The translations under genes and the position numbers were made by a program. A DNA stretch of 64,000 nucleotides from a phage: the sequence record PX670417.1. One strand, written 5' to 3'. The notes beneath the pieces are model-generated. The model did no database searches, was not told the DNA's origin, and saw only the letters and a program-made list of their open reading frames with translations. Shown piece after piece: positions 1 through 1,044 of the stretch. Every line of letters starts with the position of its first letter. Position 1 is the first letter of the stretch.

Positions 1-980
1 GGTAGCCCTTAACAGCCCTGTAACATCCCCTTTGCAGAATTTTAAAATATCATTAACAATCTCTTAACAGTTATTACATCTTCTTAACATCTCTTCAGAG
101 GTCTTAACAGATTTTTAACAGAACTAACAAGGGTTTAACAGTTTTCTAACAAGTGCTGAATAGTCTTTACAGATGATTAACAGATGACTAACAAGAGCTA
201 ACAAGTTAATTTTTAAGAGTTATTTTGTTAAGATAATTAACAAGTTTCTAACAAGTGTTTAATCTTTTTAACAAGCTATTAACATGGTCACTATCTCTTT
301 CTTATCGTTCCCTTTCCCTCTTAGTGATTCTTTAAATAGCCCTCTTAAAAGCTCTCTATAGCTCCTTGTAAGCTCTTTTTAGTCTCTTTCTAGTAATTAC
401 ACCCCAACTATGTAGAAAGCTCTTTATAGGGCTTTACAGGGGCTTTAAAGACTATGTCAAAGACTCTTACAAGGCTTTTACATGGTTTTAACAGAGATTT
501 AACAAGGGGCTAACAAGTTGCTAACAAGTGTCTTAAAAGCATAACTATGTAGGGTTTGTTAAGAAATTGTTAAGAAAATGTTAAGGGGGCTAGCATTTAC
601 GTAACTTTTAAGCTACTTTTAAGCTACTTTATAGCCCCTATAACATACTTTTAAAACACTAACAAGCCCTTTCTAGTAGTTCACAAGATAGCTAACGAGA
701 TGATAAAGCTTACAACCTTATAAGATTCTTTTAAGGCTCTAGAAAGCTTTATAAAGGGCTTTTAAGGGTGAGGTAATGCAATCCCTTAAGTTGGGTTGAT
801 AAGGCTGTTATAGGGCTTTATAGAGCGTTTAAATGGTTGCCCTTCCCTTTCGGGTTATGGGCTTATATTTAAGTTGATTTAATAAAAGGCTATAGAGTAA
901 GCTATAGAGTTATTGCTTTTTAAGGTCTAGTAAGATTCTGGAAAGGAAAGGGAAAGGATTGTATAGGCATTTCATAAGAC
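1..980. repeat. Repeat-dense AT-rich noncoding region (recurring words TTAACAG, CTAACAAG, TTTTAAG, GGCTTTATA; short tandem duplications such as TGTTAAG x3 and CTTTTAAGCTA x2)
   Basis: No ORF of 60 aa or more on either strand in about 1 kb; dense degenerate direct repeats; inverted pair CCCTTTCCC (about 310-325) and GGAAAGGGAAAGG (about 940-960). Confidence 0.6.
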
Positions 981-982
981 GT

Positions 983-1005
983 AAAAAAGCCCCATATAAA
1001 GGGGC
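983..1005 (-). terminator. Intrinsic terminator closing the leftward early operon
   Basis: Minus-strand hairpin GCCCC-TTTATAT-GGGGC followed by TTTTTT; a second GGGGCT-AAATA-AGCCCC hairpin lies at about 1019-1034, just after the stop of ORF 1045-1293. Confidence 0.6.
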
Positions 1006-1044
1006 TGTAAAGGTATCTGGGGCTATTTAGCCCCGCTGCGTCGA

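Follow-up and report, generated by a model that had tools for sequence, protein, structure and literature searches.

The gene-free left end of a Felix O1-like phage genome as a probable direct terminal repeat with phased word arrays

The first kilobase of the window, by which we mean the whole 64,000-nt stretch of phage DNA that was analysed, is best explained as a Felix O1-type left direct terminal repeat (DTR) together with the spacer that adjoins it, the short words that crowd the region being candidate protein-binding sites at a packaging junction; we place the probability of this reading at roughly 0.85. Within it, the assignment of positions 1-590 to the left DTR copy, and of position 1 to the physical left end of the genome, is almost certain from alignment with related phages. 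A DTR of this type is already known, having been published and annotated in sister phages, and what appears to be new is a phased, strand-asymmetric lattice of words along with an inverted motif at the repeat boundaries; no description of the internal word arrays of Felix O1-type repeats was found in the literature searched. Felix O1-type phages are widely used in diagnostics and therapy, and taking position 1 as the true end and 1-590 as the DTR fixes the start of the genome, the extent of the repeat_region and the absence of genes.

A left end without genes in a Felix O1-like phage

The source of the DNA is a Felix O1-like myovirus (Felixounavirus). Positions 1-1000 match 256 phage records at 78-94% identity, and these belong to the subfamily Ounavirinae, mostly to Felixounavirus and also to Mooglevirus and Suspvirus, with Felix O1 itself matching at 87.5-87.9%. 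The genes flanking the region are syntenic with those of Felix O1-type relatives. The window encodes rIIA, NAD-salvage and ribonucleotide reductase genes, a primase/helicase and a DNA polymerase, the last two located at 32-40 kb, as well as the tail fibre, baseplate, tape measure and sheath genes of a myovirus tail. Similarity of the non-coding end to its counterparts is at the level of the flanking genes, 83-92% identity, and the end is more completely retained.

The initial annotation had described a repeat-dense noncoding region here, and this description holds: the ORF list contains no frame of 30 aa or more on either strand of positions 1-1022, and the gene-free stretch extends to 1044. 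The gene that follows, for a hypothetical protein of 82 aa, has annotated homologues in all relatives and shows 61-93% protein identity in eight IMG/VR contigs. Over all six frames of 1-1040 the longest stop-to-stop run is 40 codons, a maximum open stretch as short as this being reached in none of 500 shuffles, and 184 stops are observed as compared with 149 ± 8 in the shuffles. GC content is 33.6% in the gene-free end and ~38% in the rest of the window. Small 'hypothetical proteins' have been placed over the region in some deposited records, but the open stretches are short and stops are in excess, and it is hardly credible that the region encodes small peptides or, alternatively, a non-coding RNA. 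A permissive Rfam scan of 1-1400 returned only two matches, mir-708 and drz-agam-1, both at chance level and with scores (26 and 19 bits) far below the respective gathering scores of 71 and 37, so that no structured ncRNA was recognised. A promoter scan gave eight weak matches (9-10 of 12) where 3.3 are expected, and these are unconvincing because several of them reuse TTAACA as the '-35' element; promoter-like matches that reach 9 of 12 and are made of the TTAACA words themselves argue against a transcribed product rather than for one.

Evidence for a direct terminal repeat and its place in the genome

The evidence that 1-590 is a terminal repeat comes from relatives. Records of phages SPJ41, D4 and ECP2307 carry 100% identical repeats of 613, 581 and 592 bp at their two ends, each of which aligns end to end with 1-590 of the window, and the GenBank record of Pr103Blw holds a 581-bp repeat_region, described as a 'short direct terminal repeat', that aligns to the same stretch. 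The base aligned to position 1 is precisely the first or last base of at least eight deposited records. For UAB_Phi87 a 608-bp DTR was mapped by Bal31 digestion and run-off sequencing (PMC4837284), and the DTR given in Fig. S1 of that paper is homologous, as its reverse complement, to window positions -2..582, the Sanger run-off ends lying 2 nt from the deposited boundary on the left and 8 nt from it on the right. PhageTerm analyses have given DTRs of 613 bp for Ro111lw (PMC6454146) and 581 bp for Pr103Blw (PMC8303462), and DTRs for D4 were also reported by PhageTerm (PMC11737134), while in the Felix O1 genome paper 'short terminal repeats' were only inferred, from genome size. The boundaries in relatives are thus mostly those chosen by PhageTerm or by depositors, with one determination by Sanger run-off.

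Since 1-590 aligns to the DTRs of these relatives, the first base of the window is almost certainly the left terminus of the virion DNA. A terminal-repeat boundary had been among the possibilities raised in the initial annotation, and judged by the repeats of relatives 1-590 corresponds to an entire DTR with its inner boundary at 590/591. Self-BLAST detects no second copy of 1-1040 in the rest of the 64-kb window, and a second copy of 1-590 is not visible because the right end of this genome lies outside it. A repeat at both ends, the hallmark of a T7-type arrangement with non-permuted ends, is accordingly seen in the relatives, while for this genome the window shows the left copy alone. The DTRs of UAB_Phi87, Ro111lw and Pr103Blw (608, 613 and 581 bp) are homologous to 1-590 at 85-94% identity, share the same two boundaries and occupy the same place, between convergent right-end and left-end gene blocks. 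They differ from the repeat in the window in length only, and such length differences among relatives result from 11-nt units gained or lost and from small hairpin indels.

In momo, mio, Felix O1, Mordin, Moogle and IMG/VR contigs the repeat is present as a single copy, and in the five named phages it sits between convergent gene blocks and their terminators. Records that span the junction carry a gene-free island of ~1.65 kb around the single repeat copy, with ~600 nt of unique right-end DNA before the repeat and ~450 nt of unique left-end DNA after it, and in relatives a gene block lies on each side of the island, the two converging and each closing with a terminator. Because the island measures ~1.65 kb in relatives, positions 1-980 account for roughly two thirds of a more extensive junction element, whose other part is at the far genome end, outside the 64-kb window. 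The ~1.65-kb junction offers a concrete minimal fragment for packaging or transduction assays and for the engineering of Felix O1-type vectors. A terminal repeat also explains why, in most of the 256 related records, assemblers have collapsed or permuted the region. The initial annotation did not recognise the region as the genome end itself.

Word arrays, boundaries and conservation

The recurring words on which the initial annotation had remarked are real and far above background, although TTAACAG occurs seven times in 1-1000, all on the plus strand, and not eight times or more. TTAACA is found 13 times in the same interval, CTAACAAG eight times on the plus strand as compared with three times in the remaining 63 kb (both strands), and TTTTAAG six times forward and twice in reverse. 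GGCTTTATA and GGGCTTTAC occur once each; GGGCTTT, the broader family to which these two words belong, is present in four copies. The TAACA core has 23 forward copies in 1-1000, as opposed to 1.65 per kb per strand elsewhere in the window, and the densest 300 nt hold 14 copies of YTAACAR where the next best 300-nt stretch in 64 kb holds three. The word cluster is therefore far beyond chance and unique within the 64 kb. The local tandem duplications noted earlier are recovered by Tandem Repeats Finder (TRF) as 10 small arrays with periods of 10-14 nt. In a pattern scan of IMG/VR, four TAACA words at 11-nt spacing retrieved at least 120 heterogeneous contigs, to which taxonomy was not attached. 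The parts of the region are collected in Table 1.

Table 1. Features of the left end of the window, with the DTR assigned by comparison with related phages
Feature	Positions	Strand	Basis or remark
DTR, left copy (almost certain)	1..590	.	alignment to exact, annotated and run-off-sequenced repeats of relatives
Left boundary motif, GGTAGCCCTTAACAGCC	1..17	+	preceded by ...TGTATATCTGCTT in concatemers
Array A, 17 same-oriented TAACA-core words (TTAACAG/CTAACAAG)	8..285	+	spacing of 9-11 nt or multiples
Central DTR segment without TAACA words	286..487	+	CTTTATAG/GGGCTTTACAG/AAGCTCT words; repeat families D3-D5, D8
Array B, four TAACA words at exact 11-nt spacing	488..528	+	TRF and positions
Array C, three inverted words (TGTTAAGAAAN x3)	556..585	-	adjoins right DTR boundary
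Right boundary motif	577..596	-	reverse complement ATGCTAGCCCCCTTAACATT; boundary between 590 and 591
Unique gene-free spacer, DTR to first gene block	591..987	.	single copy in relatives; conservation 0.68-0.93
Rho-independent terminator of the leftmost minus-strand gene block	988..1006	-	scan: 6-bp stem with 5 GC pairs, then T-run
Second GC hairpin, GGGGCTATTTAGCCCC	1019..1034	.	sequence; conserved alignment block
First gene, hypothetical, 82 aa	1045-1293	-	ORF list; reads towards genome end

Array B varies in copy number, units having been gained or lost in D4, L009, L013, L014 and L015, and array C, a TRF array of period 11 with 94% match, is found in 20 of 20 relatives in three to five copies. 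The central DTR segment, with conservation values of 0.77-0.90, includes an arm CCCTTTCCC at 310-318. Beyond the repeat, the unique spacer and the terminator region together span 591-1044; the spacer contains 11-nt tandem units, ACTTTTAAGCT at 604-630 and two copies of GCTATAGAGT at 889-910, in addition to GGGCTTTATAG-type words and a GGAAAGG run (940-957). The terminator is kept in relatives and is an annotated terminator in Mordin and Moogle.

Comparison of the region across related phages, as suggested in the initial annotation, was carried out on an alignment of the junction from 20 relatives in three genera, and shows the region to be conserved with both repeat boundaries in its most conserved blocks, ...TGTATATCTGCTT/GGTAGCCC... 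and ...TGTTAAGGGGGC/TAGCATTTACG..., where the slash marks the boundary. Such blocks, candidate cleavage sites, are present across 19-20 relatives of the three genera. The left boundary, TGTATATCTGCTT/GGTAGCCCT, is invariant in all 19 relatives that cover it, and the right boundary, AATGTTAAGGGGGC/TAGCWTTTACG, is nearly so, the bin 571-600 having the maximum value of the region (0.963). Read inward, the two boundaries form an imperfect inverted repeat, with GGTAGCCC--TTAACA on the left and GCTAGCCCCCTTAACA on the right as read from the sequence, and they share a 16-nt motif, G[G/C]TAGCCC(CC)TTAACA, in imperfect inverted copies.

Within the same alignment the TAACA cores are 94.6% conserved as compared with 83.3% for other DTR positions, none of 5000 random placements giving a value as high, an excess that may be inflated both by the anchoring of aligners on repeated words and by the phylogenetic relatedness of the 20 relatives. 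Most individual words are retained in 17-20 of the 20. The spacing of the cores is also far from random. Between the 21 forward cores in 1-530, 13 of the 20 gaps measure 9-11 nt, where random placement yields 1.7 such gaps on average and eight at most, with 13 reached in 0 of 20000 trials; the remaining gaps are of 20, 31, 33, 39 and 209 nt, and on average a gap departs from a multiple of 10.5 nt by 0.8 nt. The TAACA words are thus helically phased and strand-asymmetric.

The 11-nt unit copy number differs between phages and small indels are common, and both observations bear on whether the arrays might be neutral by-products of replication slippage or local duplication in an untranscribed end, with only the cut sites and the homology of the repeat (for concatemer formation) being of consequence. 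Copies of the units vary (TGTTAAGAAAA from three to five, CTAACAAGTNG from one to three and, upstream, TCTAACAAGCC from one to five), as they also would in weakly constrained DNA, and the frequent indels and the ten short TRF arrays are likewise in line with slippage. This explanation is nevertheless improbable, since TAACA cores lie at aligned positions in 17-20 of 20 relatives from three genera and significantly exceed the intervening spacers in conservation, since a single orientation is maintained over 500 nt and switches exactly at the boundary, and since the spacing is helically phased.

An inverted pair reported in the initial annotation does exist, as CCCTTTCCC and three copies of GGAAAGG, but neither arm is conserved. 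Mooglevirus phages, L015, NS7 and pEC-M719 have lost the GGAAAGG arm by deletion, and the CCCTTTCCC arm, which lies inside the DTR while its partner lies outside, varies with no compensating changes. Because the arms are short (9 nt), distant (620 nt apart) and unconserved, we attribute the pair to chance and have rejected it as an element.

Packaging, alternative roles and known junctions

The greater conservation of the cores, their single orientation and their helical phasing lead us to infer that the words are protein-binding sites. Recognition during packaging, a further possibility named in the initial annotation, is plausible in the light of this conservation and phasing, and we tentatively propose, from sequence, that the YTAACAR words are the packaging-recognition sites. 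In the scheme that we envisage, modelled on T7-type phages, replication would produce concatemers with one repeat per junction, a sequence-specific terminase would cut these at two fixed boundary sites, and DNA synthesis would then duplicate the repeat to leave a copy at both ends of every packaged genome, a mechanism of duplication that has been stated for T7-type DTRs (PMC10438801). The YTAACAR words would serve as cooperative sites, on one face of the helix, for a protein that marks or bends the junction, and so would take the role that CCTAAAG arrays may have at the T7 junction, while the right cut would be specified by the inverted triplet together with the inverted motif at the boundary.

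It is conceivable, though we regard it as a more doubtful step, that the YTAACAR lattice might constitute both the recognition and the measuring device of Felix O1-type packaging, acting with paired G[G/C]TAGCCC(CC)TTAACA cut sites. The candidate lattice comprises 21 forward words, three inverted words at the right boundary and more forward words in the right-end unique DNA, where relatives have 3-10 forward TAACA copies. Were this reading to be true, these phages would lend themselves well to the study of how the limits of an exact 0.6-kb repeat are set and how such a repeat is duplicated. The large terminase subunit TerL (Terminase_6N/6C in the relative D4) lies outside the window. Beside TerL in D4 no small terminase subunit (TerS) is recognisable; the TerL neighbours belong only to the function-unknown families phrog_4397, DUF7217 and DUF7338, with the 66-aa ORF directly upstream of TerL matching phrog_4397. 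The searched text of the PhageMaP preprint on Bas63 contains no intergenic fitness results for the Bas63 junction, and a literature search on GATC avoidance in Felix O1 was without yield.

The initial annotation had also offered an origin of replication, and the phased direct repeats could in principle be initiator iterons, their 11-nt spacing resembling that of iteron arrays and the GC content being slightly lower than in the rest of the window. We consider an origin very unlikely, and this suggestion is not sustained. A consensus search of the region found no DnaA, IHF, Fis or Chi sites, no initiator gene adjoins (the primase/helicase and polymerase are remote), and the cumulative GC skew only mirrors gene orientation, the end being without a skew feature. 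Direct repeats are present in the way expected of an iteron origin, but the host-factor boxes and an adjacent replication gene are absent. Moreover, the location of the arrays matches that of the mapped terminal repeat precisely, so that a packaging or end role explains their placement directly.

Another function of the DNA end, namely an ejection pause or stop, protection from exonuclease, or end-to-end recombination into concatemers, might also account for the arrays, which are located at a DNA terminus that is either the first to enter or the last to be packaged. The island lies between convergent terminators and is thus not an ordinary transcription unit, as such a role would have it, and a precedent can be drawn by analogy from the terminal repeat of T5. 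The T5 repeat is ~10 kb long and carries genes, and a repeat-rich non-coding stretch of it, in which DnaA boxes have been reported, has been proposed as an injection stop signal. The two have in common that repeats and palindromes abound in a gene-free part of a terminal repeat; the Felix O1-type region differs in that its repeat is short and gene-free and in that no DnaA or IHF sites are found there. We regard an end function of this kind as unlikely, and retain the packaging junction as the preferred reading.

Arrays of short sites beside a packaging cut are familiar from other systems. SPP1 pacL/pacR and the R sites of lambda cosB are small-terminase recognition arrays, and ParR-parC is built of 11-bp iteron arrays, all three sharing with the present region multiple short phased sites on the same face of the helix. 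In SPP1 and lambda the sites in addition adjoin the terminase cut site, as the words here would, a geometry expected for cooperative binding or wrapping. These two phages differ from Felix O1-type relatives in having a recognised small terminase subunit, such as could not be found beside TerL in D4, and neither is known to make exact short DTRs.

The closest mechanistic analogue, as far as analogy can indicate, is the T7 concatemer junction, whose known pac elements are pacB and pacC. Re-examination of this junction shows a 160-bp repeat and 13 same-oriented CCTAAAG words at 13-nt spacing, of which two precede the repeat, three are inside it and eight follow it. Both junctions are gene-free and contain a short exact DTR, and both have many 5-7-nt words of one orientation, both within and beside the repeat and roughly one helical turn apart. 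There is no sequence similarity between them, however, and the Felix O1-type repeat has nearly four times the length, holds most of its words inside rather than beside it and has an inverted triplet at one boundary. In T7, early promoters beside the repeat direct transcription inward; in the Felix O1-type arrangement the gene blocks on both sides are transcribed in the direction of the junction.

Boundaries of the direct terminal repeat

The direct terminal repeat (DTR) of the related phage UAB_Phi87 has been sequenced experimentally and is 608 bp long, aligning to window positions -2 to 582 (PMC4837284 Fig. S1). Compared with the ends given in PhageTerm-based deposits, this repeat begins 2 nt more to the left and stops 8 nt earlier, which leaves the exact right-hand cut somewhere within 582-590. 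In one related contig the stretch homologous to the 608-bp repeat measures 614 bp.

In the neighborhood of the large terminase subunit gene (TerL) of the relative D4 we could recognize no small terminase subunit for the group. TerL itself is of the Terminase_6N/6C type and is preceded by a 66-aa ORF (phrog_4397, function unknown), beyond which lie a DUF7217 protein and tRNA genes.

Repeats and hairpins around the junction

Two short units vary in copy number with the relative considered, TCTAACAAGCC, present in 1 to 5 tandem copies in the right-end unique DNA, and an inverted unit, TGTTAAGAAAA, found in 3 to 5 copies at the right DTR boundary. The small GC hairpin in the unique spacer between the DTR and the first minus-strand gene reads CCCTTCCCTTTCGGG in the window vs CCCCTTTCTGGGG in L011-L013 (loci from related phages), and its stem appears, from comparison of these sequences, to have been kept despite the differences.

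Small hairpin-forming indels of 22-26 nt, of three sequences (GGGATTGGTAACAATACCAATT, TTGATTCGGTAGAATCTACCTCAT and AGTGGTTGTTTACAAACACAAC), are present or absent at differing junction positions depending on the relative. Among the fetched loci they are confined to the gene-free island that comprises the DTR and the unique DNA on either side, and none occurs in the window. They look like miniature palindromic insertions.

Positions of the repeated and hairpin elements and of the loci around TerL (L-numbers are loci from related phages)
Feature	Sequence	Position
GC hairpin, conserved	window, unique spacer	840-863
Cassette, ~70 nt	window	about 1293-1362, 1625-1692, 2219-2287
TCTAACAAGCC tandem unit	relatives, e.g. 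ECP2307, L008 with L007	about 350-400 nt upstream of left DTR boundary
Hairpin indels, first position group	relatives	L010 ~5122; L012 ~5101, ~5205; L014 ~5130; L015 ~4470, ~5087; L019 132; L024 1684
Hairpin indels, second position group	relatives	L004 3351; L012 5391; L026 864
Hairpin indels, third position group	relatives	L001 296; L009 5108; L012 5018
Loci around TerL	phage D4, L149	12747-12947; 12969-14570

Early-block cassette and restriction sites

Between consecutive small minus-strand genes a cassette of ~70 nt (...ctcctagtttaaggactttacttagtggggaggttatccctcccgttgattagtaatttac) recurs, and it is found again in relatives. It unites a GC hairpin with the upstream gene's ribosome-binding region, and has the look of a terminator and translation-start module repeated within the early gene block.

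Over the whole window (1-64000) GATC is not observed at all, where a Markov model predicts 227 occurrences. A number of 6-nt palindromes, many in all (AGATCT, ATCGAT, ATGCAT and CAGCTG, for example), are likewise absent, and GGCC and CCGG are found at roughly half the expected frequency. Together these deficits point to restriction sites, of the Dam/MboI type and others, having been strongly selected against.
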